A DNA stretch of 64,000 nt from Mercenaria mercenaria (GCF_021730395.1 NC_069372.1:64348221-64412220); one strand, 5' to 3'. Shown: positions 18,838 to 59,477, counted from the stretch's first letter. Notes: generated by a model from the letters alone, not told the origin. Numbers and translations: made by a program.

Positions 18838-19504
18838 TACTCTTGTCTGTCTGTGTGTGTGTCTGTCCATCTATCTGTCACGAATCTTGTCTGTGCTCCA
18901 AGTCAAACAGTTCTCATTCGATCTTCACCAAACTTGAACAAAATGTGTTTGCCAATAAGTCCTCGGCCAAGTTCGATAACTAGCCAAATCGGCCTTGGCA
19001 CTTCGGAATCATGGCCCTTGAATTACCAAAAATGCTGATGCCAGTGATACAGGTCTTGGTGCATGGTTGACTCAGATACATAATGAAAGGCCATTTTTTC
19101 CAAAACTTACTCCAAAACTATCAAAGGTATATTTTTTGTGAGTAAACAGTATATAAAGACAGACTTACTATTCAGATGATTAGGCAGTTGTGGGAGACAT
19201 GCGCTTTTCTCAAAAGCAGCTCTAGTTGAGAGAAAGACTACTCTTTAACATGTTTACATGAAAAGATTGGTGTAAGTTTGGTGTAAACATAACAACATCA
19301 TTATTGTCTGAATATTTATGACTTTTAGCAAACAAAACAACAAAATTTGAGGGAGAGATGTAAAACCTGGAAACTTTACCACTAATGCCTGAAAATAGCA
19401 CAAGAGACCATGAAATATTTTTTACATCTCTCCCCCCTTCCCATACACACACACTGGGGAGACATATTGTTTTTGGCAGATTTTATGGAGTAGACAGCTC
19501 TTTT

Positions 19505-23097: not shown

Positions 23098-23689
23098 TTT
23101 TCTTTTAATATTGTCGTCAAGCATCGTCTTTGAGTCAACGTCATTTAAATTTCATTTGCCATGAACATTGACTCATTTGGGTTAATATTTCTTGGTTTTT
23201 TGACTTATACTACAAAGAGGTAAATTACCTTCACCTTTTGACGTCAAAAACTTATCGAAGGGTATACCAGCTGACTTGTCCACGGTCCAAACTGTACAAA
23301 GCATAATTATACTGTGGGCGAATGCTCGGATGGACCGTCATTACAAATAAATGAACAGAAGAACGAATGCGGTTATATATTTATATTTTCCGTTGCAGAC
23401 AAAACTCGACCTAGCCGCATAAATGTTTACCTCACATCAGACATGACACCATTTGGTCGTCCGGATAATATGTACAACGTCCCATCATTGCGGAACGCAT
23501 ATAACCCGATTGCAGCGGCGACAGAGGAGGCTGTTTGGACAGTATATACTGGATTTCGGCGACCCTGTGGCATAGCGATGTGCCTTGTGATTTGCCAAAA
23601 GTAAAATATAAAATCTTTAATATTAACTATTTAAAGCTTTAAATCTTGATACTTAATATTGTCTGCAAAATACTTTTCTCTTTTTTGCC

Positions 23690-26060
23690 GCTGTCAGAAC
23701 GGCTTCATGCAAAGTGCTATTAAGTTTGTCTACTGCTGTCAGCACGGCACAACAGGAAGTGCTATTCAGTTTGTTTACTGCTGTCAGCACGGCACAACAC
23801 GAAGTGCTGTTCTCTTTGTCTACTGCTGTCAGCACGGCACAACAGGAAGTGCTATTCAGTTTGTTTACTGCTGTCAGCACGGCACAACACGAAGTGCTGT
23901 TCTCTTTGTCTACTGCTGTCAGCACGGCACAACAGGAAGTGCTATTTAGTTTGTTTACAGCACGGCACAACAGGAAGTGCTATTCAGTTTGTTTACTGCT
24001 GTCAGCACGGCACAACACGAAGTGCTGTTCTCTTTGTCTACTGCTGTCAGCACGGCACAACAGGAAGTGCTATTTAGTTTGTTTACTGTCAGCACGGCAC
24101 AACACGAAGTGCTGTTCTCTTTGTCTACTGCTGTCAGCACGGCACAACAGGAAGTGCTATTTAGTTTGTCTACTACTGTCAGCACGGCACAACACGAAGA
24201 GCTGTTCTCTTTGTCTACTGCTGTCAGCACGGCACAACAGGAAGTGCTATTTAGTTTGTTTACTACTGTCAGCACGGCACAACACGAAGTGCTGTTCTCT
24301 TTGTCTACTGCTGTCAGCACGGCACAACAGGAAGTGCTATTTAGTTTGTCTACTACTGTCAGCACGGCACAACACGAAGTGCTATTTAGTTTGTCTACTG
24401 CTGTCAGCACGGCACAACACGAAGTGCTATTTAGTTTGTCTACTGCTGTCAGCACGGCACAACAGGAAGTGCTATTCAGTTTGTTTACTGCTGTCAGCAC
24501 GGCACAACACGAAGTGCTATTCAGTTTGTTTACTGCTGTCAGCACGGCACAACACGAAGTGCTATTTAGTTTGTCTACTACTGTCAGCACGGCACAACAT
24601 GAAGTGCTGTTCTCTTTGTCTACTGCTGTCAGCACGGCACAACAGGAAGTGCTATTTAGTTTGTGTACTACTGTCAGCACGGCACAACACGAAGTGCTGT
24701 TCTCTTTGTCTACTGCTGTCAGCACGGCACAACAGGAAGTGCTATTTAGTTTGTCTACTGCTGTCAGCACGGCACAACACGAAGTGCTATTTAGTTTGTC
24801 TACTGCTGTCAGCACGGCACAACACGAAGTGCTATTTAGTTTGTCTACTGCTGTCAGCACGGCACAACAGGAAGTGCTATTCAGTTTGTCTACTGCTGTC
24901 AGTACGGCACAACACGAAGTGCTATTCAGTTTGTGTACTGCTGTCAGCACGGCACAACAGGAAGTGCTATTCAGTTTGTTTACTGCTGTCAGCACGGCAC
25001 AACACGAAGTGCTATTCAGTTTGTTTACTGCTGTCAGCACGGCACTTCGTGTTCAGTTTGTCTACTGCTGTCAGTACGGCACAACACGAAGTGCTATTCA
25101 GTTTGTGTACTGCTGTCAGCACGGCACAACAGGAAGTGCTATTCAGTTTGTTTACTGCTGTCAGCACGGCACAACACGAAGTGCTATTCAGTTTGTTTAC
25201 TGCTGTCAGCACGGCACAACACGAAGTGCTATTCAGTTTGTTTACTGCTGTCAGCACGGCACAACACGAAGTGCTATTTAGTTTGTCTACTGCTGTCAGC
25301 ACGGCACAACACGAAGTGCTATTTAGTTTGTCTACTACTGTCAGCACGGCACAACACGAAGTGCTGTTCTCTTTGTCTACTGCTGTCAGCACGGCACAAC
25401 ACGAAGTGCTATTCAGTTTGTTTACTGCTGTCAGCACGGCACAACACGAAGTGCTATTTAGTTTGTCTACTGCTGTCAGCACGGCACAACATGAAGTGCT
25501 GTTCTCTTTGTCTACTGCTGTCAGCACGACACAACACGAAGAGTTGTTCTTTTTTGTCTACTGTTTGTCTACTGCTGTCCGCACGGCACAACACGAAGTG
25601 CTGTTCTGTTTGTCTACTGCTACAGCACGACAGAACACGAAGTAATGTTCTGTTTGTCTACTGCTGTCAGCACGGCACAACACGAAGTGCTGTTCTGTTT
25701 GTCTACTGCTATCAGCACGGCACAACACGAAGTGCTGTTCTATTTGTCTACTGCTGTCAGCACGGCACAACACGAAGAGTTGTTCTTTTTTGTCTACTGT
25801 TTGTCTACTGCTGTCCGCACGGCACAACACGAAGTGCTGTTCTGTTTGTCTACTGCTGCAGCACGACAGAACACGAAGTAATGTTCTGTTTGTCTACTGC
25901 TGTCAGCACGGCACAACACGAAGTGCTGTTCTGTCTGTCTACTGCTATCAGCACGGCACAACACGAAGTAATGTTCTATTTGTCTACTGCTGTCAGTACG
26001 GCACCACGCAAAGTGCCGTTCTATTTTTCTACCGCTGTCAGTATGACACCACCCGAAGCT
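23690..26060. repeat. 60-bp minisatellite × ~39 (ctactgctgtcagcacggcacaacacgaagtgctgttctctttgt / …caggaagtgctattcagtttgtt variants, partly alternating as a 120-bp higher-order unit). The array decays towards its 3' edge.
   Basis: Direct reading. The unit length is a multiple of 3 and lacks stops in several frames, which explains the overlapping 643/434/415-aa and antisense 361-aa ORFs. Confidence 0.95.
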
Positions 26061-29000
26061 ATTCTGTTTATCGACTGTGCGGCAGCACGCGAAGTACTGT
26101 TTTATTGTCCTATTTTATTGAACTGTCAAATGCATATTGATTACATGAGCGGTGCACAGAATATTTTAATCTTCGGTTGATTTTCGGTACAAACACATGT
26201 ACAAAGTAACCAGCAATTGAAATGGTTTATATTTAAAGCGTGTATACCTAATGTACGCAAGTCACGATAGCTCAGTGTTCATCGTCAATAGTTTTAAACC
26301 TGTAGGTCGTAAGATCGAAACCTCTTAGTGTCAGTGTGTGTTTGTGTGTGTTTTTAACAAAGTTCCACAAACACGTTGTACATGTACATTTTCATCCAGT
26401 ATTTCCTAAACTGTATTTTTACAAGTATTCTTTTTTCTATTTTTATCTCTTTTATTATTTCCCATTTCATATACAAATGTATATATTTCTATGTTATTTT
26501 TTTATTCACAGTTCATTTCACTACATTACAAATTTCATAAATATAAATTACAACTAGATAGATTCATCATTCAGTTTCCTCGCGATGTCGGTACTGCTGA
26601 CCTCGGAGTTATATAAATTATATAAATAATTAAAAATGAAAAAATAAAAATGTTCTCGCTAATGGGTTCGAACCAGCGATTTCCTGCATACTAGCTATGT
26701 GCTGTAACCACTGAGCCACAGATACGACCGACGAGTGCATGTTTCACTTACAATACTAATAATGATATTTAGACACTTGACCAAAATTTCTTTCCGTAAA
26801 ACATACGGATAGCACCGAAGTTGGGCCGAATATTATAATATCGAATGCACAGAGCGTATAATGTATGCATATTTGACAGGTTAAAAAATAGTACAATACA
26901 TGTGGAAGGGGGGTTAGTTAATCCAAGATGAAATTACAACAAGTCTTGTTATTTCCCTTTGACCAGTTTCTTTTCATACACATGTGCTTTACCGTTGCCT
27001 GGTTATAATGGATATCGCGGGAATATCATCACATGTGCTCGGATTTTGACCGTTTTATTGAACTTTTTATAGTAAAGACCGAGACATCAGGCCCCGAACT
27101 GAGGTGTGAGCATTTCTCTGTTCCAAAAACTGTAATAGATTCAGCTGGATTAAACTATTTCGATCGAAAAACGTTGCAATATCAGGAAATATTTTTCTGT
27201 CTTTGAAATAACTTTGAACATTACAAAAATAAGCATTTAAATTATTCTTTCATTGAAGCTAGTCGAGATATAGTTGTTAGCTTGTTATAGTCCCCTAATC
27301 AAGGTTAACTGATGGTCTCCGACATGTGTAAGTGATGTTAAAATATATGTCCAAAGATAGTACCCGGTGCTTCAGAAAAAAACCCACATACACACACACA
27401 AAAGACAACTGCTGTACATCATGCACGTCGGGATTAGCAATACCATCCATTTGTTGCTATTGTATTTGTGTCAAATGTATGTCATCATGGGCTTTTTAGC
27501 TTATCTGATTTGAAATAAAATGTCTGTCTGTCTGTCTGCCTGTTCTCATTGCGAGCAATACTGCCAGAACCAGAGCATGTTATCTTAGGTAAGGAAAAAG
27601 ATACTTTGCAAGATGTAACTAGCTTGAAAAATAAAAGAATAAGTAAACTTTATAACCATTATTGTAGGCACATCAGCTGAACTAATGATGTATACGTGGC
27701 ACAACCAGAACTAACCAATTATGTTTGTATTTGTGGTAAAAAAAGCAAGAGTACGTAAACTCGCAGCTGAATTGCACCTAAAATATCACGTTTATGGTAA
27801 AAAAATACTTAAACACATAATATTATAGAGTATGTAAATAATTTAGAACCGTCAGATATTTTAAGGTTACTATAATTGTACCAAAGAATATGAACGAGAT
27901 ATTACGTGGAATAATACTAGGCGACTTTAGTAGGAGCGCAATGATGCATCCGCGTAAGAACAAGTGTATATTGTCCGTTACAAGTCCAATGACCTATTCA
28001 TAACATACACGTTTATGAAAAAAATCGAATATGAACAAACAGCAACACTTGAAATTATATGCTGGTCAGAAACACAACATTTACGATTATTTAGAATTTA
28101 GAGATGTAAAAAATCTTCTTCATCTTCCAAAGGGGAGTATTATTTTCTATCGCTTTGTAAAACGGTAAAATTTAGCAGTGATCTTGCTACATGTTTTTTT
28201 TTTACTTGATGTATGACTAAATCTGCTTGTCTTTTGATATATTAATAATATATATATTACCAGCGTAACTACAAGAACATAATATCTACAAAAGAACATC
28301 TATTCTTCTTCTCCGGTTTCATCTGTGCAATAAACAGGCATGATTTGTGCGGATAAAGCCAATAGAAGTAAAACATGATCCATGGAGCCAATATTGGCAA
28401 ATCTGTGTAATTTCATATCACATATCTTCATTTTATTCCAGTTAATTAAGTTGTTATTGCATTCAAATATATTTATATTTTCAAATACGATCCCTGAACG
28501 ATCTTTGAGGTTATGAATAGAGCATCAAGGGCGGTTAGTGTGTCCATTTGCTGTAGATTTATGTATGAAATATGTAATACACCGCTGTTTAAACTATTCA
28601 TACAACTTTATTAACATCTCTGTTATGTATACCTCTTTTAGAAAACTGCATTTTTACAAAAATAAAGCAAAATGGAGATAGATATGGCGGAATCCCCGCC
28701 TAGGAAACAAAACATTGCACGTGCACACGCACACAGCCACAAATCCATCTACCCACCTATCCAGCTGTTGTTGTTTTGTTTCGGAGAGGGTGCATTCTTT
28801 TAATGTAACTATTTCTTCTTGGTATTTTCTTCATTTTTTATTTGTTTGATTGACTTTGCTCATGAGAGGCAATGAAATGTGCAATATCTTTCTAGTCCCC
28901 ACGGAACAGGCGTAAATGTGCAATATCTTTCTAGTCCCCACGGAACAGGCGTAAATGGATTTATATTAGACAAGTATTAAATGGACTCCATGTTCTCTCT

Positions 29001-29617
29001 TTTATACATAAATCGTTTGTTTACATACAAATGTACTTATATTCTCCTTCACTTTTCTGCATATATGTAAACATCTCATTGTGACTTACATTAAACTCTT
29101 TCAAAGAAAAATGCAAATCTAGAAAATTAATACAAAACATTTTTGGCCTTTGCTTAGTAAAACAATTAGCTATAGACAAGTGCACTTTAATTTAGTATCG
29201 AGGAACCTGTTTATCTCTATCGCGGAGACGCAACATATTAAAAAGCTCTTTTGCCCTGTTTTTAACACTTATCAAAACATACATCAAACGAAACACATAA
29301 AATAAAGTCAATTGTTTGGCAAATGATATTCATAAAATAAAGCACCGGGCGCACAAATAGTTAACTGTCTATAAACAGCCAAGTTAATCTATATGAAGTA
29401 ATGAAACGACGAGCTAAAACTGTAATGGAAATTATACCGTACAGTTATTTCAGGCGAGAAAAGCCCAAACTTATGACTTCAGAAATAGCATTCATTTGCA
29501 GAAGATATCAAATTCAGGCACGTCCTTCGTGTTTCAAGAATATTCTGTAGAATTTACATCTCGTTAAAATACCCAATGGGACTATTAACAAAGATATCTG
29601 AACATGTAACATGATTA

Positions 29618-29907
29618 CGGTGCCCCTAAAGTTACATGTTACACACTTTTTTTCCACTTAGGTAATGTGAGACTTTTTTTTATTTCAACTATTTCGTTTA
29701 AACGAAATGATTTCGTTTGAACGAAATAACTATTTCGTTTAAACGAAATCATTTCGTTTAAACGAAATAAGTTTAAACGAAATAGTTATTTCGTTAAAAC
29801 GAAATCATTTCGTTTAAACGAAATAAAAAAGTCTCACATTACCTAAGTGGAAAAAAGTGTGTAACATGTCACTTTAGGGGCAGGCACGAAAGAAGTCTAT
29901 TCCAGTG
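29618..29907. mobile_element. Foldback/palindromic insertion present only in copy 1 of the duplication. Long inverted arms (gtgcccctaaagttacatgttacacacttttttt ccacttaggtaatgtgagac…) enclose repeats of the self-palindrome atttcgtttaaacgaaat.
   Basis: The inverted repeat is read directly. The paralogous site at ~36860 lacks the insert. Confidence 0.7.
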
Positions 29908-31337
29908 GCTGCTTAAAATGGCAAAATCCGCAAACCGTTTTTCCGGTTACAGTAATTTTTCTTTTCAGTAACGTTTCAATTTTTATGACAGTTTTTAGTA
30001 TTTCCTGAAAAACGTATTACCAGTTCAATTTTAAAAGGTGAAATAATATAATTTTCCCAAAAGAAGCAAAACTTTCTGAGCATTTCTCCTGCATATTTAT
30101 CAAGGGGCAAGTGCCAACATAGTGTAATTTATGTCGTCAAATAGTTTTATACGGTAACACGATAAAAACGAAAATGTTGCAGGCTCGGATTGATTGAGCC
30201 TGTTCATGGACGGTAGTAGAAATTGATGCTACTGTCCATGCCCTTTAGCCCTTGGTTGAGAATGACTCAACATTTACACATGCTACAAGTACAAAAGATA
30301 ATAGGTAAAGGTAGATTTCTCGGAAGCACAGAGCACCAAAAAACACAGCCTCAGAGCCACGTGTTTCCAAAGTAGGCCCACAACAAAAAGAAGCTGTAAT
30401 GGAAAAATATTACAGACGGGTTGCTTCAAAAATGTAACAAGTACATATAAATTTATGCCAAGTATAGATAGAGGGGGAGAAAGTGGCAATGGGTAAAAAG
30501 GGGAAAGGGGTTGGGGTTGGGGGAGGAAATAGAAGGGGAAAGTAGAAAAAAGATGAATATACAAAGTGAATGCTACATTCCTTAATTAAGGTTACACTAC
30601 AACGTAAACCACAATAGCGCACACATTCATGTATCAAAGATAAACACACAGCGACACCCAACTAACTAACATAGAAAAACGAACAGGTAAGATACAAGAC
30701 CACAGTAGGGCACCGCTTTAGAAAAACAATTTAGAGACATCCGCATATGTGTTCGTACGGCAGTGCACATGGAACCTTCAATGATACACTACACATGGAA
30801 CCTTCAATGATACACTAGAGTGTAAATCAATGAAAAGCGGAACAGTTTAAATAATAGGCATACATTTGTAACTAAACAAACTGGAGTTTAGAAAGGGGGT
30901 CAGAGGTTATGGAGCCTGCATATCATATGAACTGCCAAAAGACAAAATTAAAAAGCAGGCACCATTTCCAAGGGGTAATTATACAATACCCAAAGCTATG
31001 AAAGCGAGGGTATTGAACCACCCAGGCCGTAGTGTTAAAACTGAGAAACTGAACTACCAATAACATGACATAAATGTCGTGCTGAACAATTTTTTTCATT
31101 GAATATCTTTCGGCAAACTGGCAGCAAACGGAAATCTTTTTTTTTCAACTGTTATGTCAAATTGCATCCCAAATATGCAAGTGTACTTTCACTTTTGAAA
31201 CAAATGCGAACGCTTACCTACGAATATCTGTAGCAGTAGATGCGTCTTGTTCGAATTCAAATTTACGTGTTTTATTGTCTAAACGGTCAGATATATTAAT
31301 ATTCTACAAAAGATGAAATATTTTCAACATTGTTACT

Positions 31338-33163
31338 TTTTAGCATAGAGTTTTTGTGATCGCTCGATGTCCGTCGTCTCTCTTCTGTCTGTTTGTCGTC
31401 TGTCTGTCAACATTTAGCTTGTGTATGCTATAGAGGCTGTACTTTTCAATAGATCTTTATGCAAAATTTGGTCAGAACAATTACCTTGATAAAATCTAGG
31501 CCAAGATCGAAAATGGGTCATCTGGAGTAAAAAAACTAGGTCACTAGGTCAAATCAAAGAAAAACCTTGTGTATGCGATAGAGACTGTATTTTTCAATTG
31601 ATCTTCATGAATTTTGGTCAAATGATAACCTTGATAAAATCTAGGCCAGCTTTAAAAATGGGCTATCGGGAGTCAAAAACTAGGTCACTAGGTCAAATAA
31701 AAGAAAAACCTTGTGTATGCGATAGAGACTGACTGTATTTTTCAATTGATCTTCATGAATTTTGGTCAAAATGATTGTCTTGATGAAATCTAGGTCAAGT
31801 TTGAATATGGGTTATCTCGGGTTAAAAACTAAGTCACTAGGTCATATCAAGGAAAAAGCTTGTTTATACAATAGGGACTTCATTTTACACCAAATTTTAA
31901 TGAAATTTGATCAGAATGTTTGTCTGGATGAAATCTAGGTCAAGTTGGAATGTGGATCATCTGGGGTCAAATACTAGGTCAAAAGGTCAAATTAAAGAAG
32001 AATTCTGTGTATGCAATAGGGGCTGCATTTTACATTAGATATTCATAAAATTTAGTCGGAATAATTGCTCTGATGAAATCTAGGAGGAGTTCGAATATGG
32101 GTTATCTGGGATTAAAAACTAGGTCACTAGGTCAAATCAAAGAAAAAACTTGTGTATGCGATAGGGGCTGCGTTTTACACAGGATATTCATGAAATTGAT
32201 CAGAATGTTTGTGTGAATGAACTCAAGGTTGAGTTCGAATGTAGGTCATCTAAGGTCAAAAACTAGGTCATCCGGTCAAATTAAAAAAAAACTTGTGTAC
32301 GCAAAAGGGGCTGCATTTTACACTGGATATTCATAGAATTTAATAAGAATGATTGCCTTGACGAAAACTAGGTCAGTTTCAAATATGGGTTATCTGGGGT
32401 CAAAAACTAGGTCGCTAGGACAAATCAAAGAAAAACATTGTGTATGCGATAGAGGCTGTATTTCTCAATTGAGGTTCATGAAATTTAGTCAGAATAATTG
32501 CCTTGGTACAATCGAGGTCAGGTTTGAATATTGATTATCTGGGGTCAAAAAATAGGTCACTAGGTCAAATTAAAGAAAAACCTTGTGTAAGCAACATGTG
32601 CTGCATTTTACACCCGATCTTCATGAAATTTGATCACAATATTTGTCTTGATATCTTCTAGGTCAGATTTGAATCTGGGTCATGTTGGGTCATAAACTAG
32701 GTCATCTAGTCAAATCAAAGGAAAAGCTTGATAACACTTAAGAGGCCACATGTATGACCATATCTTCATGAAATTTGATCAAAATGTTTATGTTGATGTT
32801 TAAAGTCTTGGATGATTTCGAATGTGGGTCTCATGGGGCCAACAACTAGGTCACTAGATCAAATCAAAGGAAAAGCTTGTATACATTCTAGAGGTCACTT
32901 CTTTCATTCTTCCTGAAACTTTGTCAGAATGTTTTTTTTTTATGGAATCTTGGACAAGCACGAATCTGGGTCATGTGCGGTCAGAAACTAAGTCACTAGG
33001 TCAGATCACAGAAAGTACTTGTTTACCCTCAATATTTTTGATCCAATCTTAATGAAAATTGGTTAGGATATTTGTTTCTGTGAAGTCACTAGGTCAAACA
33101 TGTTTACACTGTTATGGTGTGTTTCTCAGGTGCGCGACCTAGGGCCAACTTGGCCCTCTTGTT
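31338..33163 (+). mobile_element. Helentron-like element with its 5' hairpin deleted, carrying ~12 tandem ~130-bp units (…ctaggtcactaggtcaaatcaaagaaaaaccttgtgtatgcgatagaggctg…). 3' is CAGGTGCGCGACCTAGGGCCaacttGGCCCTCTTGTT.
   Basis: 3' terminus and internal array read directly. There is no counterpart in duplication copy 2, so it was inserted after the duplication or deleted from copy 2. Confidence 0.65.
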
Positions 33164-34687
33164 TGTTGACCTATTAATTAAAACAAATCAGTACATATCA
33201 AGTGTAACCAAACAGTTTAATGCGTCTTTGTAACACAAATATGTTCGGACACAAAATATGTCACATGTTAATATATTCTGATGCTGTCTTTTATTTCATC
33301 TGCAAAAGTCTTGAAATCAATTATTATATTGTAATCTGAGCTTCGTTTTACATTGGTACATTGTAGTTATCCCATATTTATATTTCCAATTCTGATTTCT
33401 GGAAATATTAACATGCGAATACAACAATCCTTTACCATAAAAGTAATAAGACATATAAATCATCATTGTTTTCCATTTAGGGGTTTATTGATAATAGCAA
33501 ATTTGCGATACACGATAGAGTAACTTGCATTATGGTTAATATCACTCTATTTGTAGTGGGGACGTATAAAACGGCTTTGTCTGAATAAGTTAATCATTTT
33601 CCAGAGCTTTTTTGGGCATTTTGCCAGTGAATCATGAAGGAAACATTTATGTAACGAAAACTCAGTCTTATATTTATCTTATCCTTAGGAAAAAGTATGT
33701 TTATCAAATTTATACTTAAGTTCAATCAGCTTTTCCTTGGTTGTTCAATAAGGATAAGAAAATCTAATTTTAGAACATTCTAGAAAACCTCATGTGAAAA
33801 TCTAATATGTAATTAAACTTTAATGTTTATTCAATTACATGATCAAAAACTCTGATTGTTCGCGCCTTATGTAAACTATAACAAAACGTGCAGTAGCTTT
33901 ATTAATGCTTAAATAAATATTGTTTATCGAAATGTTACCAATATTTCTCATACCTATGTCTAAAAGGTTTGTTACAATACTAAGAGATAATTTCAAAATA
34001 TCATGAAATGTGCAATCAGTAATTCCATCAAATCTAGAAATAAAATTCGTTAACTTGGTTTGATAAACATCCGGTCGTTTTGGATCACTGACACCATTCA
34101 AATTTTCTAGAATTGTAGGCGCTAGGGCGTGATTGATGTTGCACTTTCCATTACCTCCCCTAAACTTATTTAAACCGAGTCTGCTATAATTTTGCTTGGT
34201 TGCTTTCTATTTCTTATAGATTATATTACCGAAACCAAAAGGAAACACTGTCAGTAAGGCCTAAAAATTCTTTGTTTCCGGTAACATGCTCAAAATAATT
34301 AGGGTAGGAAGGTCGGAATTGTTTTTTTTTCTTTTATTTTTTTTATATTTTTTTTTAAGTGAGTCTTTTCGGAAATTATTTTTGTGTCAAAAATGAATAC
34401 AAATAAGGGGGTTATGCCTTTAAAGCACCAGTAAGTTGGTTTCTAACATCACCGACCATGTTTAAGGCATAGAAAGTGCAGTTTTGCAACCTTTTGTTAA
34501 AAAAGTTGAAAAAAATATTCTCCAAGGCCATACAACTTTTAGTGTCAGGCCAACAATTTAGGGTAGGTCGGGATTTCGGAGAAAAACAATATTTTACGCC
34601 TAATATTTCTGTCCAAAAACAACCGATATTGAATTTCAGTCCCCTACTGATTGAAAACCAGTTTCAGAGAATATAGGATTGCGCTTT

Positions 34688-34740
34688 TCCGTTCGTCCGT
34701 CCGTCCGTCTGTCCGTCCATCATTTCGTCCGTCCGTTTGC
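34688..34740. repeat. (CCGT)n-like microsatellite. A degenerate counterpart in the paralog lies at ~40880-40915.
   Basis: Direct reading. Confidence 0.8.
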
Positions 34741-34899
34741 ACTTTTGTGTCCAGTCAATTGCAAATAAAAATATACTCTATAAACGTGTTCAAACTCTTT
34801 ATATTGATACAGTTTTTGTTATTTCAACTAAGTTTAGCTAAATATTCTACTGATTAATAATTATTGCTCATGATTTATTATTATACTATATAGTAAATG

Positions 34900-35169
34900 T
34901 CCCCATGTGGTTCTGGGACGATTTATGTATAAAAAGAATTGGAACCACTGCCTAACCCTTGCATGATCGTAAGAGGCGACTAATAGGGTCTTAACACTTG
35001 GTTTTGCTGTAACTCTGTGATTCCAGCAGGTATGCAAATTTTGATTCCATACCTCATACTTTTATTTCGATGTAAATGAGATGTGAAACCAAAATTTGTA
35101 GTCCTGTTTGGCGCCATATAACCTATATTGTGTTGGTGCGCCGTAAAACCCAAATAAATAAATAAATAA
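34900..35169 (+). mobile_element. SINE-like insertion with a perfect 12-bp TSD atatagtaaatg (34888-34899 and 35170-35181). Present only in duplication copy 1.
   Basis: The TSD is read directly. Tail 'tgttggtgcgccgtaaaacccaaataaataaataaat' matches the SINE tail family. Confidence 0.7.
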
Positions 35170-36339
35170 TATAGTAAATGCTTTAATTTCAACACGATCG
35201 CTGGATGCAATTGATATTCGACCACACATATTTAAGAGCAAGCCTTTTCACACAAGAATATTGTCGCAAAAATAAAGCATGGGTATGACCTTGGAGCAAG
35301 GCATAATTGGCTAACTCCATTAGCGTTTATTGCTGAATTGTAGACATATCATTAGTTTACTCTCATCTTCTATGTATGATGTCTTTTCTATCAACCTTTA
35401 TCGGAGGTTCAGATCAGTTCACAGTCAGATATCGAAAGACTTGCGGTAGTATTTGTTAAAATATTGGGAGCTTGGTACACCCAGATGTTTAACTTATAAA
35501 CAGAGGACAAATGATGTGAAACATCATGCCATCCATCAATTCCTCACGTCTCACGTGGACCATATGCATTGTCTGGGTATCGATTTCAGGGGATACTGGG
35601 TATGCACTCTCTCTATTTAGCTTAATATCCTGCTATAAAACATATCGCTGAATACAGTACTTTTGCGACAAAACTAGGATGATTAAGGAGAAGTTACTAC
35701 CTTTATTACTTTTCTTTTACAAATATTTTTATCGTCCATTTGGAACTATTGCTAATATATCGCAGTATTACCAAGCAGACGAAAAATTGGTCTTTAATGT
35801 CAAAACTCCCTGTGGTGTTTACGCCACTGACCTCTTTGGTGTGTCCTGGTGTGTCCATGTGTGTCTTCATGTATGTTTGTGTCTTTTTGTTATTTCTATG
35901 TTTGATGCATTATACTCGTACGTGTACGTGTATACATTATCAAGAACCATATTTCCACTAGACTGATGCATGAGACGTTGCATCCCGCCTGAGTTTTTAA
36001 TTTGCTTAGTTTTCCTTGTCAAGTGGTCTCTCAATACAGGTATATGTTAAAAGGAAAGAGAAAATGGTGATCTAATTTCGCGCTTTAATAGTGCCTTTGT
36101 CAGAGTTTTGTTGCACTTTCATGATCTTAAATCTATACATTGATAACTGTTGTAATATCCTTGTAGAACATATTTCTTACTTACCTATTAGATTAAGTGT
36201 ATGAATATGTAGAAAGTGTATTCTTTGTTACTATCTGATATAAACGGTCTTACTTCCTGAGCTAACCATTCAGTTCATTCGCATTACCTTTGCTTTTTTT
36301 TTTGGATTTAACGCCGCACCGACACATGATAGGTCATAT

Positions 36340-39300
36340 GGCGACTTTCCACCTTTGCTTTTTATTTTAGACATCAAATAAACAGGAGTGCACTTTGATT
36401 CAGTATCGAGAACCCTGTTTATCTTGGAGAGTCAACACAATATAGCAATTATTTTTGCCCTGTATTTTTACACTTTACAAAACATGCGTCAAACGAATCA
36501 CATGAAATAAAGGCAGCATTTTTTGCTCTCAATTATTTGGCAAACGATTTCAGAAAATAAAGCATCGGATGCAAAGATAGTTAACTATCTACAAACAAAG
36601 ATGTTTTATTAGCCAAGTTAATCTTGATGTAATGAAACGACAAGCTAAATCTGTAAAAGGAAATTATACTGCAGTTATTTCAAACAAGAAAAGCTCAAAC
36701 TTATGGCTCCAGAGAAAACATTCAATTGTAGAAGATATTAAATTCGAGGAGTTTATGTTTCAATATCCTTCGTATTCCAAGATCAGACTAGAACAATATT
36801 CTGTACAATTTGCAGCTCGTTAATATACTCCAGGGGACCAGTAACAAAGTTCTCTGAACATGTAACATGATCCAGCACGAAAAATTGTCTGTTCTAGTTT
36901 CTGTTTAAAACGGCAAAATTTACAAACCGTATTATGGTATTTAATGTTTTGGATACAGAAAATCAACTTTCCAGTAACGTTTTATCTTTTTTTGACAGTT
37001 TTATGTCATGGAAATGCATTTACAGACCCATTCAAATGTAGAAAGAATATCATTTTTCCCGAAGGCGCATTTCACCTGCATATTGATCAAGGGGGAGTGC
37101 CAACATAGTGTGATTTATGTCATCAAACAGTTTTATACGGGTTTAGTGAACTGCGCCAGCATCAGAATTTAGTCTCAGTCTGACAATTTTTATCAAATAA
37201 TCTTACCGCTAACTTCTGACTGCTAACGCCTACTAGCGCATAATTCCGAACATGACTGGTTGTGTTTGTAGCAACTGATGACAACTTGCATGAGATTAGC
37301 GGGTTGATTTTCAAATATGATCATGGGTTAACTGGACTTTTAAATAAAAAAAAAAAAACACATTGAAACCCCGTTAGAAATTTAATTGACGGCAATAAAC
37401 CTTAATATACAGGATGTATGTTTTAAGGACAAAGCATAAATTATAAGCGAAATATCAATTGTGACCAACCATTTAATCTGACAAACAAACATGCTGGGAC
37501 GAAGAATATGTCTGATTTATTCTGATGCTGTCACTTTAAAACGATTATTTCATCGGAAAATGTCTTAGAAGAAATTTCCACCTTGTAATATGAGCTTCCT
37601 TTCACAGTGATAGCTATCCTGTATTAATAACTCCATCTATTAAATCTGGAAATGATAAATTGAGAATAAGACATATAAATCATTATTCATTTTCCAGTTA
37701 ATGGCTTAGTATCTTTCATTAATAAACTATAAATTTATAACCGTGCGAAGACAAGACCTATCATATAAACTTTTTTACGCTGTAAAGGTAGACTTCACAT
37801 CAGCTTTAATTCCAGTGTTCTGTTTCTAATGTCTATTTTCTATGCTGTTCCGTTAGTGCAGTTGTAACACAACCTTGATTTGTGGACTTTTCAGGCCGAG
37901 AACACCATATGATGATGCAGAGACGAAATAAAAAACACGATGGGATTAGAGCAATATTTCTAAATAGTTCAGTTGTCGTGTAGGATATCGAGAATAAAAA
38001 GGATAAAAATGCGACATGCCATCGATTCCTGAGTTAAGTGGGTTTACGATCCATAAATCTGATCTGCGATCGAAATCAAACTGTTGCGTATGTTGTACTC
38101 TTGAGATATTTTTGCTACGGATAACGAAAAACAAAAATGTTCTACCCGCATCATTTATCATAAACCCATTCTTTCTTTGTATGCTATATAAAATCGAACT
38201 GAAGCTTTTTGTGTATTTTTTTTTATATTTTCATGCAATGCATGTATACTATTGCATATATGTTCAAAACATCTATATATTCCAGAGTAACTTTGAAGTA
38301 TTATTTTTTTACAAAACTGTCTCAGTTTTGAATGGCAATATTATTCAATATTCCATTGCCTCCTCTTTCTTTTATATGTGTATCATACTTTGACGTATAG
38401 TTAGATTTATTGTACATTTATTACAACTGCAAAATGTTAACCTAGAACTTAGTTCACGAACATGAGCATATTTTCCAACGGAACTTTCTACATTACATTC
38501 ATATTATCATTATTTTTATTATATACCTATATAAATTCTGTAAAATATCAATTAAATATGAACAGGCAGGAACAAATTCAGTATTATACCTTTTAAGTTC
38601 CCTATTGTACCTTCCGTATTGTATGCTGCCGGACTACTTTCATTAATATGCATGACCTGACACAGTTCTATAAGTAGCGCAGATAAAAACTTCACTTAGT
38701 TCCATTTTGATATCGATAAACATTGAAGATTTCGTTCAAAAACAAAATAACAAACAAAAGGAAGAGGTATATAACTGCAGCTCGATCTGGGATTTTGTAT
38801 TCGGCTCTCGTGGATTTTGCAAGGTCGGATCACACACGTCGTTTGCGCGCCTCGTGAGATCCGATCTGGCAGAAATCCACTCGAGCCAAATACAGCATCC
38901 CAGATCGAGCTACTGTTATAATAATCCTATTTTATATAGTATTGTTGAAGTTGCATCCTTTGAAAGCAAAGAATGCAACCAAGAAGAACAATAGCTGACT
39001 CGTTTTGACTGAGTCTGTCCATGACAGGTATGAAATCACCAGTTAAATGTTCAGCAACCCTATAATTCGTCTAAATAAGTAAACCATTTTCCAGAGTGGA
39101 GAGGTTCTCGTTTTCAAGGGTATTTTTCGAATGCATCATGAGAGAAATATTTCAGGAACGGAAACTCAGCTCAGTTTCTAAAATTGCGCAATGCATAATT
39201 ATAACAATAGTAACAGAATCGTGTCGGATGTTTTTTTTTTAAATCTAATTCTGTTTTTTTTTTTCTGACCAAAATATTTTATCTGACAATTTTTATATAT

Positions 39301-41250
39301 CTTAACAAAATCAGTTTTAAAGTTCCAAAGAAAAACATTTTAGATCGAATACATAATTTTGTATTTCATTTCTTATAATCTTTCAAGAAACGAGACTTGC
39401 GTCAAACTGGCATATCAGATGGCATATCAGATGGTTAATCACATTTAACATTTTATGACATTTTTCTGTTATAACAGTTTCATATAACGTGTTAGACATT
39501 TATCTGAGGAACAAAAAGGCCCTTAACATAAAGTTAGAAATATCCTCTTTTTGATTTATATCAAACAGGATTAACCTCCTCCCTTTTATATGACAATATT
39601 AAAAAAGTTGAGTATGTCTTTTGACTAGGTTTGCATTAACATATGATAGATATTTGAGCAATCTGGAATAAAAAAAATAAAGCACGGAAAAATGGAAGCT
39701 TGAAAGGTTTTATTCCATTCTATCATTGCTAAACTAAGGGATGTAATGATAATTCTTCAAATCTACATTTCTATAGAATCTCGGCAATTCTTTGGTATAT
39801 AAACTACAAGTGCTCTTATATCTATATTAGCCTATGGGAAATGTATGTTTATCAAATTTAACTCTTCCCTGGTTGTGCAAAAAGGTTTTAGAAATATCTT
39901 AAGTGTAAATCCAACATGTATTTAGTGCTTAGTAAAGACAGATAAGAATACATGATTAAATTCAACGTTTATGTAATTACATGATCAAAATGTTATTAAC
40001 CACCTTGAATAGGTGAGGCAGAAAATCATTTTTGTATGATGCTCTTGCGCATTGACTGCAGCTTATGACAACTAAAACGAAACGTGCAGTAGCTTTTTTA
40101 CATTTAAATAACGTGTATTGAAAAAAATGTTACAAGCACTTTTTATGTCTATTTTTACAAGCTTTGTTACAATATGAGGGTTCACATTTTGAGATAATTT
40201 CTAAATATCAAGAAATATGCGCTCTATAATTTCATCACATTCCTCCTTTAGAGACGCCGATGCAGAAATAAAATTCGTTACTTTGGTTTGATAAACGTGA
40301 AAGATTTTGGAAAAAAGCAGCTGTAAAAAGTCTCTCCGTACTTGGATTAAGTGTTGTTATCTTTTCTGGTTCTTTTGGACCTCGGTCCTAAAATTGAATT
40401 CCGTTTTACCCGGCTCTAGGGGACGTGGTTGGTGTTGCAATTTCAATCGCCTGTAATGAACAAACACAGTCAAACTGAGACCGCTACCACTTTGTTTGGT
40501 TGCAATATAATTATGCTTCAAAAGGATCTTATTATAGAGCATATTATTAAAACAAAAAGAAAACACTGTCATTAATGTTTCTATTGTTATATTTATGGGT
40601 TGGCAGTGAGAGGTTAGGACTGAGGAAAGGGAGAAAACTCTGTGTTCTGATTAAAGACTTAGTAAAAGAGTTGTTTCCCTTGCCAAGTAAGTGTTCTGAC
40701 GATAACATCCGAGTTTGCCTCATTGTTTATTACATTCTGTAAATGTCTAGTCATTTTTACAAATACACCTCATAAATACCATTTTTCTGGTCACAATTAC
40801 ATAAACTGACATTAAAAAATGGAGTGCAGATAAGTCCCCTACAGGACGAAAACCAGTTTCGGGGACTATAAGATAGCGCTTTCCATTCGTTCGTCATTCT
40901 GTCCGTCCGTTTGTATTTTCGTGTCCGGTCTATTGTAAACACAAATGTTTTCTATAAACATGTTCAAGCACTTTATTCTAAGGTTAGCTAATTATTTTAA
41001 TTAGTGAAAAATTAACATTCATATATTCAACAACTATTATTTAACATATCGTAGATACTTTAATTTCAAAACGATCGCTGGACGCGTTTGAATTTCGACC
41101 ATCCGTATTTAAGAGAAAGTCTTTTCACACAAGGATATTGTCGCAAAAATAAGGAATGGATAAGACCTTGGAGCAAGCTCCATTAGTGCTTCTTGCTAAA
41201 TTGTACGCATATCATTAATGGCAAGACGCACGTATTACTCCCATCTTCCA
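36340..41250 (+). repeat. Copy 2 of the tandem segmental duplication.
   Basis: See copy 1. Begins next to SINE fragment 36297-36358. Confidence 0.75.
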
Positions 41251-42394
41251 AGTTAGAGATGTTCCTCTGTTGGAGGAAAGTCACATATTGAAAGTCATGC
41301 TGTGATATTTGTTAAGCTATCAGGAGGTGTACACTGTTCGATAGTGCCGTTTGCCTTATTATCTCTCTCTTATACATCATTTTTAAGAATTTCAATTGTA
41401 GTTTAAGGAATTGTTAAAATATTCAAAATATCTTGATAAGTTTAGAAGTAATCGTCAAAATCGTTTTTACTGGATATTATCCCATTATTAATTTCAGCAA
41501 TTTTGGGCATAATTTATTTTAAAACAATCACATTTTGACTGAATTCGTCGATTGACTTTCATAAAACTTTCAGGATATCTTAGTTACCTTCCCATTAGAG
41601 CAAAACTTAAGTTAATGTTAACTTATAAATATGTATTACTTTACGACGAAGTTTTATGAAAACAGAACGTACTTGAATGAAAACGAGTATATTGCCAAGA
41701 AAACGACATTTGACAATGGTTGGATCATACATTTAACTATTAGGTTCAATGCTATTGTTATCTTTATTGCAATATCTTAGCTTTGTGCGGGACGATATTA
41801 CGATAGGAATTTGATATGAAAATCTACGATAAAGTCTAAAAAATCTCGGTTGTGAATAAAAGAAACTTGATTAAAAGATTTCCGCTAAAGAATAAATTCT
41901 TTGCATCGGACCAACAGCTGTGCTCAATTGTAATATGAAAACTCTCTCTCAAAAATAAATTCTCTGCGTCGGACCAGCTGCACAGCTTTATCGGCATCTG
42001 AATATCTATCTTTCAGGAATAAAGTCTGCGCTGGACCAGCTACTCTGCCTAACTGTGACCTCTCTGTCTCTGTCTACGGTGGGACTCAAACTACTCCATA
42101 GCTCTTGATCCGGAGGCGAACGCTTTACCACTGAGCACACGATTCCACTTTCGGTGAAGTAATTTTGTCTAATGGTACAGAGTCCGCCTCCGGTGCAGAA
42201 GGTCGCGGATTCTATCCACGGTCGCGTACCAAGGATGTGAAAAATGGTACCAGTTGCTCCCTTAAACTGCTCAGCATTATGTATATAGAACAGGCTCTTC
42301 TCTCAAACTGTGAGGACTGATGTCTAAAATGGTAGAATTTGTTTCAGGATTCACCTTGATTTAATTACTGTAAGAATAGTAATTTTGTATCAGA

Positions 42395-42575
42395 TATTTT
42401 CGTGTTTGGGTTTAACGTCGCACCGACACAATTATAGGTTATATGGCGACTTTCCAGCTCTGATGGTGGAGGAAGACCCTATGTGCCTCTCCGAGCATTA
42501 TTTCATCACGAGCGGGTACCTGGGTAGAACCACCGACCTTCTGTAAGCCAGCTGGATGGTGTATCAGATATAGGA
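42395..42575 (-). mobile_element. SINE (core family), minus orientation. Adjacent tRNA-like head fragments lie at 42080-42300.
   Basis: Core 'ggttatatggcgactttccagctctgatggtggaggaagaccc…gcattatttcatcacgagcgggtacctgggtagaaccaccgacc'. Confidence 0.7.
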
Positions 42576-43801
42576 TCCGATATACTATTTTCGTGCTAAT
42601 TATAAATGTAAAGGAGAACAACAGGTTGTAATCAATGAGCGCCGTTAAACATTTCTGGTAAAATAAAGCAACTCCTCATAAAAGTACATTTGAACGAACT
42701 TTCTAAAAGTTTAAAATTATGTTAAAGTAACTATTTTGACGAAATTAAATCGACAATGGGCCGCATGCTAGCTTATTTTTATTTTATAAAGCTAATCTTG
42801 TCTAAATGTATATTACATTTTGTAATAAAGTTCGGTTGATCATCTCGTTTGTGCTTTTGTACTTCAAAGTTTCAATTTCTATCACGTGTGTTTACCTGCA
42901 TTACTTTAACCGAATCATTAGTTATATAAAATGTCTGTATTAGAAAGAATTTGGCAAAACAACCAAACAAATCATATAAGATTTCAGATAAAGAAAATCG
43001 TTTATTATCGATATTAAGACCCTTTCCATTGATTAACTCAAAACATTAATGCTTTTCTGGTGTTATCTTAAAACACAACTTTCCAACTACTATATAACGT
43101 ACGCCAGTAACGCTCTAACAAAACGTTTTGTGCAAATGATTCACGTAATGTCTCCACGGCAATGCATAACTTAGAGAAGTTAGTTTAGCTCGAATCTGAT
43201 AAGGTCTCAAAAGGCCAAAAGTTCATACACTACTAGTCTAATTAAATTTGTTCAGATTATAGATTCCAGAGTGAGCTACTTATATAAGCTAGAAAGCAAT
43301 CTCATGGGTCAATAAAACTCTTAATAATACAATTTGTGATGCGAAACTTTCTTTAATTTTTGGAAAGTGCTGTCCGTACACACGAGATTTACTGCTTTGA
43401 AATGGTGAATCGAGTTAACGTAAATGCATTGACTAAATTGTCCCTTTAGATCCAAATTTATCAGACAATAAGAGTAGACTCAGTCAAATGTATTAAAAAC
43501 ATATGACATTTTCTTGCTTCTTACCTAAAGATATTTGTAATGCACAGATTTCATAGTTGATAACAGCTGATAATACTTACAATTGTTGCACATAATTTAT
43601 TTCTTAAATGATAATATTGTATCAGAGTAAACATGCAAAAAGCGTATATGATATTTTAGAGAGATAGTTATTGGGAAGAAAAGTGTACTTTTGATTTAGA
43701 AACTGACCCGATCTGTCTGTATTATAGAACAAAATAACAACACAACGGGAAACTTCAATTATAACCTTCCGTTGTACCAGAATATAACTGACTTTAAAAT
43801 A

Positions 43802-44044
43802 ATATGAGCCGTGCCATGGGAAAACCAACATAGTGGGTATGCGACCAGCATGGATCCAGACCAGCCTGCGCATCCGCGCAGTCTGGTCAGGCTCCATGCT
43901 GTTCGCTAACAGTTTCTCCAATTCCAATAGGCTTTAAAAGCGAACAGCATGGAGCCTGACCAGACTGCGCGGATGCGCAGGCTGGTCTGGATCCATGCTG
44001 GTCGCAAAGCCACTATGTGGGTTTTCCCATGGCACGGCTCATAT
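43802..44044. mobile_element. Palindromic ~243-bp MITE (arms ~105 bp; TIR TGAGCCGTGCCATGG…; flanking TA on both sides, so Stowaway / Tc1-mariner-like).
   Basis: A near-perfect inverted repeat is read directly. The 79-aa and 101-aa ORFs here are artifacts. Confidence 0.7.
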
Positions 44045-44337
44045 GTTAATTTCCTATCCCATACTACCAGATGTTGACGAATTGCCGGAGAATAAGCCAA
44101 CAATAAACCGTGGGTTTAGCGTAGAAGTCGTATAAGCGGATTATACAAGTGGGGAAACATTCTTTAATGTAGCGGGCAAATTCTAGAATTTCCAAGAAGT
44201 GCGTTGGAGGCGAGGTATCCAGTACTGCATGATCAGAAATTGATATTTACAAAATCTGAAAAAATAAACATGCAGTAATTACATTCAAACTTAATATTGT
44301 TTATAATAATCTATTCATAAGCATGTGTAGTTTATGC

Positions 44338-44580
44338 ATATGAGCCGTGCCATGAGAAAACCAACATAGTGGGTTTGCGACCAGCATGGATCCAGACCAG
44401 CCTGCGCTTCCGCGCAGTCTGGTCAGGATCCATGCTATTCGCTAACAGTTTCTCTAATTGCAATAGGCTTTGAAAGCGAACAGCATGGATCCTGACCAGA
44501 CTGCGCGGATGCGCAGGCTGGTCTGGATCCATGCTGGTCGCATACCCACTATGTTGATTTTCCCATGGCACGGCTCATAT
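44338..44580. mobile_element. Second copy of the same palindromic MITE. It lies inside a ~536-bp tandem duplication whose units are 43793-44329 and 44329-44870.
   Basis: Direct reading. The flanks (…ccagatgttgacgaattgccggagaataagccaacaataaaccgtg…) are duplicated too. Confidence 0.7.
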
Positions 44581-47039
44581 GTTAATTTCCTATCCCATAC
44601 TACCAGATGTTGACGAATTGCCGGAGAATAAGCCAACAATAAACCGTGAGTTTAGCGTAGAAGTCGTATAAGCGGATTATACAAGTGGGGAAACATTCTT
44701 TAATGTAGCGGGCAAATTCTAGAATTTCCAAGAAGTGCGTTGGAGGCGAGGTATCCAGTACTGCATGATCAGAAATTGATATTTACAAAATCTGAAAAAA
44801 TAAACATGCAGTTATTACATTCAAAGTTAATGTTGTTTATAATAATCTTTTCATAAGCATGTGTAGTTTATGCATATGAATTTGTTCAAGCTAAATTCCC
44901 GAGGACTCTTCCGTCATGTAAAGTGCCAGTGCTAAATGCCAAATACGTTATACTATCATGCCAAATATTTAATTTAAACACTAAATATTAAATGTTTATG
45001 CTTTGATAGAAGCTCTTGATACTAATTGCCAAATATCTATATAGTATTAATTGCTGTATTAACTGTTTCATATCAAATGTCAGTCGTATGTAGTAAATGT
45101 ATTTGACTTTCAATATTTGAAGACGTAATGTTTAAAGTCACGTACTACTCTTTACTTACAAATTTGTTTTCTGTGATATATGGTACGTATCTAAGCAACA
45201 TCTGTTGAAAATATTTGAACTTTTATTAGCTTTTGTATCTTCTCAGTAAACAAGCTTACAGACATCATTACTGCGTAAATAGTCAAACTTTTAGTTAATA
45301 TCTTTTGAATTTTAATAACGTGCTATATTTGTAGCCAGGTTCTACAATTAATAACTGAAACTTTAAAATACATTGCATATGTTGTTTACCTGGCTTCCTG
45401 TGCAAGCCATTGGCAAGCATAAGAATGCAAATATACGAAAGAGACTATACTTTCCAAACTATTTGCTTCTGTTTGTGAATTGGACATATAGTATACAGTT
45501 GTATGCGTTTTATTTATGTGTTCCAGTATGGGTCATTGATATTGAAATTAAAATCTAACTTAGGCTAGATTTTCTCTTAAATACATTAACCTAAATTAAT
45601 ATTTTTAAAGGTAATATATCCATAGGCCATCTGAAATCACCAAATGTGAGTATTATTTTGTGAGTTTTTTTGGATAGGGGTGAAAAACTTAGGTAAGACA
45701 CTTGCCGAAGAAAATTGTATAAATAAAAATATTAATGTGACAAAATTATAATGGGTATGTTTTTCCTTATTGACTTACAGCTTGCTTTAACAGTTAATGC
45801 CGTTTTTCTTGTTTTTATGTCATAGCCATTCGTCACAGCTCTTTCACCCTCAGTATGTTGGACAGTAGCATAATAAGTGAGTCCCTGGCTATTCCTTGAT
45901 ACAAGCGGATCTGATGTTGAATTTGGAATGGCTGCCTGTCTTGAATTAGAGGATATTAAACAAATACATTGCAAACTTGATACTTAATCAAAGTACTGAT
46001 AGTACAGTACTGATGGAAGGTGATTTATGTTAGTACGTGTATGAAAAGAATCCATTCCAAAAATGGCACAAGCGCTAACAGCGCTTTGATAGTAAGAAAC
46101 CCAATACATATAGGATTTGATTCGGCTAACCATATCATCAATATGATACTGCGATTTGGTGATATATGCAGTTATACATCCACACCCCTGTACAGTAAAA
46201 AGATGTAAAGTAAAGGCACAGAGCCGATAGTTATTCGTAGGAAATTACTGCGCCATTGGATTATATTCAAATATGTTGAACTATTTTTTACTGGGCATGA
46301 GTACTTGTAACTTCGCGATCAAGTCCACTGCAGCATCAAAGGTGGTAATAGAGTAGGCCAAAGCTTCCGTTCTGTAACGATAATGAGGCCAGAGTTGATA
46401 AATTATTCCGCATTGAACTACATTGTACAGCGGATAGAAACGAAATAGTTGTGAGACAGTCTATTCCTGTTTAAATTCTGCGCGGTCACACAGAGAAGGT
46501 TTCAAAAACATTAGAACATTCCTTCTGTTTTTATTTTTGAAATCATTCGCCCTCCACCTCTAATGATTCATGTGGGGAAATTGGCATTTACTTACGGAGA
46601 ACAGGTTTGTACTGGTATAGAATCCATTAACTGCCCGCCGTTACATAACTGAACTACTGTTAAAAAAAACGGCGTTAAACCCAAAACAAACAAACACCTT
46701 TTCCTTAAATGATTTCCTTCTAGAATAAATTATGAGGTCGTGCGAACGTGATTATTTCAAATAAACATGAGTACAAATGAAACAAAAATCAAATGACATT
46801 TTAAAATCCAAAAAGAACATGAGACACATCATTATATTTCTATGCCACAACATTAACAGGAAAACGAAATAAAAACTTGTCGTAAAATATGGAAACAATT
46901 ATCAGGAGTAAAACAAACCTATCAGTATGCATATAGCGTAGAATTAGCTTATAATTGTTTGATTTGTTTTCATTTTAAGTAACACCAGCACAGTCAAGGT
47001 TTTCAGAGGAGACTCGATGTGTATGGTAGCATATTTCTG

Positions 47040-59474: not shown

Positions 59475-59477
59475 TAA

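Follow-up and report, generated by a model that had tools for sequence, protein, structure and literature searches.

Two neighbouring segments at 29146-35500 and 36286-41365 in a stretch of Mercenaria mercenaria DNA (GCF_021730395.1 NC_069372.1:64348221-64412220; all 64,000 nucleotides were analysed and are called the window) are decayed copies of one another that later received different transposon insertions. The window is 35% G+C and dense in satellites, with units of 145-164 bp at several sites. An original prediction, made from the sequence alone, had described a tandem pair of collinear paralogous blocks of ~6 kb. This description is borne out as a local direct duplication, and the unit edges first given lie within ~50-100 bp of ours. 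The copies are indeed neighbouring and in direct orientation, but they are not strictly head to tail, given that unique DNA lies between them.

29146-35500, + strand: copy 1 of the duplicated unit, 6,355 bp (~3,975 bp minus three recognised insertions), linked to copy 2 by a chain of eight blocks
35501-36285, no strand: spacer between the copies, unique, 785 bp
36286-41365, + strand: copy 2 of the duplicated unit, 5,080 bp, linked to copy 1 by the same chain of eight blocks

Collinearity, divergence and coding content of the two copies

We compared the copies with blastn (28.0-36.3 kb against 35.4-43.0 kb) and queried tiles of 500-600 bp against the whole window with nhmmer, taking the significance of the blocks from the E-values of both programs. 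Eight same-strand blocks in monotonic order link the copies, from 29142/36347 to 35479/41333:

29142-29623 and 36347-36876, same strand: block 1 (blastn core E 8e-82)
29863-30155 and 36857-37141, same strand: block 2 (blastn/nhmmer)
33193-33488 and 37450-37709, same strand: block 3 (blastn/nhmmer)
33576-33669 and 39066-39173, same strand: block 4 (blastn/nhmmer)
33664-34070 and 39812-40298, same strand: block 5 (blastn/nhmmer)
34070-34259 and 40365-40577, same strand: block 6 (blastn/nhmmer)
34628-34853 and 40823-41003, same strand: block 7 (blastn/nhmmer)
35166-35479 and 41043-41333, same strand: block 8 (E 8e-44)

The computed chance that eight blocks share both order and strand is ~2e-7. 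Satellites and families of short interspersed elements (SINEs) aside, this is the sole long chain that nhmmer detects in the 64 kb. Blocks 1-3, 7 and 8 have no third match anywhere in the window (nhmmer tiles); the genuine dispersed families found there (SINE family R, the HINE family and tRNA-derived heads, described below) are present in 3-6 copies each. We also looked, by self-comparison, for short and scattered family matches in place of a chain, and this pattern was not seen. A global alignment of the two units with MAFFT was discarded as a map; through the middle of the units it paired unrelated DNA at 45-50% identity, and only its clear gaps (the foldback and a 67-bp insert) were used.

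Piecewise global alignment of the eight blocks yields 2,100 aligned nt with 79.7% identity, including 210 transitions, 216 transversions and 478 gap columns. The Kimura two-parameter distance (K2P) between the copies is 0.238 overall and 0.20-0.32 block by block; this evenness fits one duplication event and not a patchwork of repeats of differing age. Identity above 90% is reached by no 50-column window of the alignment, so there is no hint of selective constraint or of recent gene conversion. About 2.1 kb of each 5-6-kb unit is still alignable, and about half of each unit no longer aligns.

The original prediction also held that the locus may be prone to unequal crossing-over, a claim that the present sequence does not support. 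Exact matches between the copies reach 19 bp at most and, as said, no 50-column window exceeds 90% identity; such short matches, combined with ~80% identity and frequent indels, make the present copies poor substrates for homologous exchange. Two metagenome scans for 26-27-nt strings conserved in both copies gave no match, which says nothing either way on copy-number variation. This sets the pair apart from young low-copy repeats, which are recombination substrates. As judged from their sequence, the copies have diverged too far to be driving recurrent rearrangements now.

The duplicated DNA is non-coding, with no gene, RNA or regulatory function indicated. A six-frame comparison of the copies gave comparable matches in all frames and on both strands, as plain DNA similarity without any frame preference would. 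Stops number ~270-290 per 4,700 codons, ~1 per 16, in each of the three frames counted. Between 28.6 and 42.7 kb there are 38 open stretches of 60 aa or longer, none of which matched a Pfam family at E<=0.1. No Rfam family reaches its gathering score in the duplicated region; at E<=1 there are mainly generic hairpin matches inside the foldback, with less than half the gathering scores.

In the alignment, homology begins at 29146 in copy 1 and at 36351 in copy 2, and fades at ~35500 and ~41365, respectively. The spacer has no homologue before copy 1, after copy 2 or elsewhere in the window (blastn with word size 7 and E<=1; nhmmer tiles); at E<=1, blastn gave noise and a SINE-family fragment only. 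Since a partner of the spacer could have been lost, 'local direct duplication' is the safe wording for the pair. Terminal repeats, inverted or direct, are absent from the unit edges, as is a long terminal repeat (LTR). No k-mer of length 7 or above that would qualify as a target site duplication (TSD) is common to the edges, a result no better than with shuffled sequence, and the edge alignments contain no subterminal inverted repeat (subTIR) or palindrome of the HINE type at the unit ends.

Sequence private to each copy

The copies differ by a series of insertions and losses, and the middle of copy 2 has a partial relative further along the window, which we call locus 3.

29618-29885, no strand: foldback element (MITE-like, that is, resembling a miniature inverted-repeat transposable element), copy 1 only, ~268 bp; copy 2 is continuous at ~36871/36872
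30161-31337, no strand: copy-1-only segment of 1.18 kb; copy 2 has 309 unalignable bp here (37141-37450)
31338-33168, + strand: HINE-type (Helentron-associated) non-autonomous element, copy 1 only, with ~10 monomers of a 145-bp satellite
34888-35180, + strand: SINE-like retroposon with its TSDs, copy 1 only; body 34900-35168, (AAAT)n tail
36286-36363, - strand: 5'-truncated SINE (family R) fragment with its TSDs, copy 2 only; 52 bp at 36299-36350, at the left edge of copy 2
37710-39065, no strand: copy-2-only segment of 1.36 kb, opposite 88 bp in copy 1; contains a ~200-bp palindrome (38742-38945)
39174-39811, no strand: copy-2-only 'extra sequence' of 640 bp; copy 1 is contiguous at 33664-33669
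40312-40379, - strand: 61-bp insert (40312-40372) plus one 7-bp duplication, TTTTGGA, copy 2 only
49153-50545, + strand: locus 3, related in part to the middle of copy 2 (38955-40314) and more diverged, with four collinear blocks at 59-77% identity

Several of these features had been predicted. The SINE with a perfect 12-bp TSD proved exact (body 34900-35168), with an unfilled site kept in copy 2, and the Helentron-like satellite element, given as 31338-33163, is essentially as described. The foldback, given as 29618-29907, is real and confined to copy 1, but it ends ~20 bp earlier, at ~29885. Extra copy-2 sequence, placed at ~39240-39840, is present at 39174-39811, but a loss from copy 1 is its more likely origin. 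The prediction had left out the segments at 37710-39065 and 30161-31337, the inserts at 36299-36350 and 40312-40372, the spacer, and the partial relative at 49.2-50.5 kb.

The foldback interrupts sequence that is continuous in copy 2, where GAACATGTAACATGATCCAG is followed directly by CACGAAAA. Its terminal inverted repeats (TIRs) start with TGCCCCTAAAGTTACATG, and its core is made up of a 19-bp palindromic unit, ATTTCGTTTAAACGAAAT. The arms 29621-29652 and 29851-29882 are 97% complementary, those at 29648-29679 and 29825-29856 are 100% complementary, and the predicted DNA fold has an energy of -120 kcal/mol (z = -28). In its near-perfect 268-nt hairpin, its TIRs, its internal short palindromes and its interruption of a continuous sequence the element resembles foldback or MITE-like elements; unlike in those, the TSD of 29618-29885 is unreadable, its flanks having diverged. 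We found no further family member in the window.

The SINE-like element has a body of 269 bp flanked by a perfect 12-bp TSD, ATATAGTAAATG, at 34888-34899 and 35169-35180, the only occurrences of this sequence. Its unfilled site in copy 2 is a single, diverged ATATCGTAGATA just upstream of 41046. With its short non-coding body, simple-repeat tail and TSD, 34900-35168 has the makeup of a SINE. Neither ARAGORN nor Rfam, even at E<=1, detected a tRNA, 5S or 7SL head in it; given that no Pol III head was detected, possibly through 5' truncation or divergence of the head, we label it 'SINE-like'. Its last ~55 nt are common to the dispersed SINE family R.

A second retroposed piece lies at the left edge of copy 2. 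The 52-bp fragment of family R is flanked by a perfect 13-bp duplication, ACCTTTGCTTTTT, at 36286-36298 and 36351-36363, its only occurrences in the window, and copy 1 retains one unfilled site, GCCTTTGCTTAG, at 29146. Both insertions fit SINEs mobilised by a long interspersed element (LINE): 34900-35168 is short and non-coding, with an (AAAT)n tail, a perfect TSD and a 3' ~55 nt common to a second family, and the 52-bp fragment has the 5' truncation and 13-bp TSD typical of target-primed reverse transcription. The former differs from such SINEs in having no detected tRNA-, 5S- or 7SL-derived head.

Members of family R occur in the window at 2640-2826 (-), 13435-13598 (+), 15660-15835 (+), 42377-42576 (-) and 36299-36350 (-). 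The 34900-35168 element, in other respects unrelated to the family, ends (35110-35168, +) in the same 3' ~55 nt as family R (…GCCATATGACCTATAATTGTGTTGGTGCGACGTTAAACCC and an A-rich tail); two SINE families with one tail suggest a common LINE partner.

The 61-bp insert, too, has an unfilled counterpart in the other copy: at 34070, copy 1 runs on without a break and has TTTTGGA once. The insert is 92% identical to 49195-49259 and 85% identical to 49457-49517 (opposite strand). Filled and unfilled sites can thus be compared for four insertions, namely the foldback, the SINE-like element, the 61-bp fragment and the truncated SINE. In each case an unfilled site is preserved in the other copy, so that all four post-date the duplication (K2P ~0.24). 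The probability that a TSD as old as the duplication would have stayed perfect is ~0.06 for 12 bp and ~0.05 for 13 bp, which agrees with the SINE-like and truncated SINE insertions being younger than the duplication.

The Helentron-type label of the satellite carrier at 31338-33168 stands on its HINE substructures. The satellite array spans 31418-32880 (TRF); the microsatellite expected of a HINE-type element is present as GTCCGTCGTCTCTC...TGTCTGTTTGTCGTCTGTCTGTC, followed by ~10 monomers of 145 bp. Both flanks are common to elements at 21690-23102 and 16425-17050: the 5' flank of the family has a GTCY-type microsatellite, and its 3' flank reads CAGGTG(C/A)GCGA..GGGCCAACTTGGCCCTCTTGTT. A 3' subTIR with palindrome, CAGGTGCGCGACCTAGGGCCAACTTGGCCCTCTTGTT, lies at 33128-33168 and is conserved at 23.1 kb and 17.7 kb; the 3' repeat of the family, CAGGTGAGCGA, is complementary to the 5' repeat and is followed by the palindrome GGGCCATCATGGCCC. 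The 5' palindrome of the family, AGCTCACCTG...CAAGGTGAGCT, is clear at 21.7 kb, 16.4 kb and 5.7 kb, and in the 31338-33168 copy it is mostly deleted (TTTTTAGC-ATA-GAG...). The flanks of the element are T-rich (…ACTTTTT/AGC and …CTTGTT/TGTT, the slash marking its ends), and no TSD was seen.

Cg_HINE of Crassostrea gigas has the same defining substructures, including the GTCY/GTCC microsatellite class, and Helitron-type elements insert without a TSD (PMC7492417). Shared with Cg_HINE are a 5' subterminal repeat with a complementary inverted repeat (seen here in the sister copies at 21.7 and 16.4 kb), the GTCY-type microsatellite, tandem monomers (~145 bp here), and a 3' subterminal repeat that is complementary to the 5' one and precedes a palindrome (PMC7492417). 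A T-rich target without a TSD would be a further similarity, but copy 2 has no exact unfilled site with which to compare the flanks. The element at 31338-33168 differs from Cg_HINE in its monomer of 145 bp and in the partial deletion of its 5' palindrome. The Cg170 monomer is ~160-170 bp long.

That the pair timestamps transposition events, as had been predicted, holds cleanly for the SINE-like element and the foldback with their unfilled sites; for the Helentron-type element, an arrival after the duplication is deduced indirectly, because the adjoining 1.18 kb (30161-31337) is also unalignable and copy 2 has no exact unfilled site. The 30161-31337 segment has no match in copy 2 or the rest of the window, and no Pfam family in its open stretches. 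The pair can serve as an internal clock, or control, that orders transposition events, and, given a whole-genome assembly, the periods in which SINE, HINE and MITE families were active could be calibrated against one another in the same way. Beyond annotation the pair has little significance. It is an ordinary feature of repeat-rich, bivalve-like genomes.

Further HINE/Helentron-type satellite carriers lie at 21690-23102, 16425-17050 and 18835-19120, and solo ends of the family (isolated 5' or 3' flanks) at 5680-5780 and 17619-17770. No autonomous Helentron partner was seen in the window.

In the middle of copy 2, four stretches match locus 3 on the same strand and in order:

38955-39024 and 49311-49379, same strand: first block
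39099-39166 and 49767-49834, same strand: second block
39194-39417 and 50036-50246, same strand: third block (68% over 227 nt, E 5e-25)
39985-40314 and 50231-50542, same strand: fourth block

The first of these (70 nt) falls within the copy-2-only segment at 37710-39065, and the third within the extra sequence. Given this relative at 50036-50246, loss from copy 1 is likelier than gain in copy 2, and 39174-39811 is probably ancestral or transposon-borne sequence that was deleted from copy 1. There are also inverted relations, between 38955-39028 and 40450-40527 and between 40317-40533 and 49517-49305. Locus 3 has no detectable match in copy 1 and no trace of blocks 1-3 or 7-8 nearby, even at E<=0.01; we rejected it as a full third copy, since the middle segment alone matches. 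Within locus 3 is a 135-bp direct repeat (49153-49286 and 49410-49544, 80% identity), each unit of which includes a version, 61-65 bp long, of the insert at 40312-40372 in copy 2.

Origin of the pair

Very probably, resident non-coding DNA was duplicated locally in a single event, after which the copies decayed neutrally and were hit by transposons independently. One old event would have copied ~4-5 kb of non-coding, low-copy DNA to the adjacent position in direct orientation, most likely in tandem and through unequal exchange or replication template switching. The 785-bp spacer would be the tail of the first unit, the partner of which, after copy 2, may have been lost or overwritten. The ancestral unit would already have held an older transposon-like segment, corresponding to blocks 4-6 and with a family member at locus 3, from which copy 1 may have lost ~0.6 kb or more. 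Both copies would have decayed neutrally, with ~0.24 substitutions per site, transitions about as frequent as transversions, numerous small indels and several gains or losses on the kb scale. Copy 1 would then have been hit by the foldback MITE-like element, the Helentron-type satellite carrier and the SINE-like retroposon, and copy 2 by the 5'-truncated SINE fragment and the 61-bp repeat fragment. Any absolute age put on the duplication would be a deduction.

The pair is like tandem or local segmental duplications of animal intergenic and intronic DNA in its direct orientation, adjacency, collinear blocks, uniform divergence and orderable independent insertions. It is unlike them in its unique 785-bp spacer and in having no gene or exon.

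Several observations weigh against a single local duplication. A simple tandem duplication predicts abutting, head-to-tail units with no spacer, or a homologue of the spacer after copy 2; we found a spacer and no homologue. With about half of each unit unalignable, large parts of the history are unrecoverable. Locus 3 also carries the repeat of which blocks 4-6 are part, so that not all eight blocks, but five, are strictly low-copy, and the count of two copies for these five holds within the 64-kb window. Finally, the left homology edge of copy 2 lies within ~0-15 bp of the insertion site of the 52-bp SINE fragment (36286 / 29146), an unexplained coincidence for which the expectation is ~4% given about six insertions.

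This coincidence of edge and insertion at 36286 / 29146 is either chance or a clue to how the junction formed. We considered whether the duplication breakpoint had severed an element to leave the R fragment at 36.3 kb, in which case the full element at 42.4 kb would mark the true end of copy 2, and rejected the idea because the fragment has its own perfect 13-bp TSD and the spacer has no homology to 41.4-42.4 kb. Erosion of the junction has left no readable trace of the mechanism.

The alternative that survives best, itself unlikely, is that a long (4-5 kb) non-autonomous or composite mobile element inserted twice, independently, side by side and in the same orientation. The unique DNA between the copies is what separate insertions predict, and transposons crowd the whole region. 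Blocks 4-6, in the middle of the unit, have a relative at 49.2-50.5 kb as well as the inverted relations of 38955-39028 and 40450-40527, and a missing TSD is compatible with Helitron-type elements, which leave none (PMC7492417). Yet a whole-unit transposable element should have defined termini, and the unit has no TIR, LTR, TSD or Helitron-type ends; its ends lack the subTIR and palindrome of the HINE type. There are no remnants of transposition proteins either (Pfam), although this is still compatible with a non-autonomous element. Blocks 1-3, 7 and 8 have no further copy in the 64 kb, whereas real dispersed families recur several times; locus 3 spans the middle of the unit only, and two landings in the same orientation 785 bp apart would be a coincidence.

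It is more doubtful still that the unit is an undescribed, long non-autonomous mobile or transduced segment without TSD or TIR, such as one moved by a rolling-circle (Helitron/Helentron-type) partner, that landed twice side by side. In a variant of this idea, the 52-bp SINE-derived piece at the left edge of copy 2 could be a templated junction insertion, made by replication template switching when the duplication occurred, rather than a later retroposition.

We likewise see little likelihood that the pair is what is left of an older array with at least three units, with locus 3 as the surviving middle of a third, older copy whose remainder was overwritten. Locus 3 is collinear with copy 2 and on the same strand over four blocks, including 38955-39024 and 39194-39417, which are absent from copy 1. 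Against this, blocks 1-3 and 7-8 are untraceable near it at E<=0.01, its offset of ~10.3 kb does not fit the period of 7.2 kb, and its partly inverted similarity (40317-40533 against 49517-49305) and internal 135-bp repeat fit a transposon family better.

An assembly artefact, in which two haplotypes of one locus were set in tandem, is so improbable that we exclude it. High heterozygosity is typical of bivalve genomes, the assemblies of which often contain false haplotypic duplications. The ~80% identity of the copies, their kb-scale differences and at least 4 private transposon insertions are far beyond allelic divergence, and different unique DNA flanks each copy; the 20% divergence and the private insertions decide the matter. 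Chance or scattered repeat-family matches without true paralogy are hardly credible: three of the eight blocks do lie in a segment with a relative elsewhere and SINE-family fragments occur near the edges, but the block E-values reach 8e-82, order and orientation are strict over 5-6 kb, and the divergence is uniform.

Other repeats in the window

Three further satellites have units of 50, 164 and 45 bp. The 50-bp satellite (1132-3026, 37 copies) adjoins the SINE R copy at 2640-2826, and the 164-bp satellite spans 9224-10159 (5.7 copies). The 45-bp satellite (23712-26077, 52 copies, 47% G+C) contains spurious long open reading frames (ORFs) in several frames, of up to 643 aa.

Sequences resembling tRNA-Ser(CGA) are found at 525-596 (+), 20350-20421 (-) and ~42166-42372 (+). 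Rather than free-standing tRNA genes, these are SINE heads; the tRNA-derived family to which they belong has related copies at 482-868, 10974-11267 and 20172-20458. The stretches 43799-44879, 53761-54491, 61833-62098 and 38742-38945 comprise a direct repeat of 536 bp (96.7% identity) that has palindromes inside it, together with several more palindromic or foldback elements of ~200-700 bp.

A nearly intact non-LTR retrotransposon occupies 56580-61331 (+). Its ORF1 lies at 56580-57818, and its ORF2 is split by a single in-frame stop into an endonuclease part (57897-59477) and a reverse transcriptase (59487-61331) in the same frame. The reverse-transcriptase ORF matches bivalve-host contamination of symbiont bins, and its best relatives are from heterodont bivalves (Mercenaria, Mya and Dreissena), at 53-60% identity.

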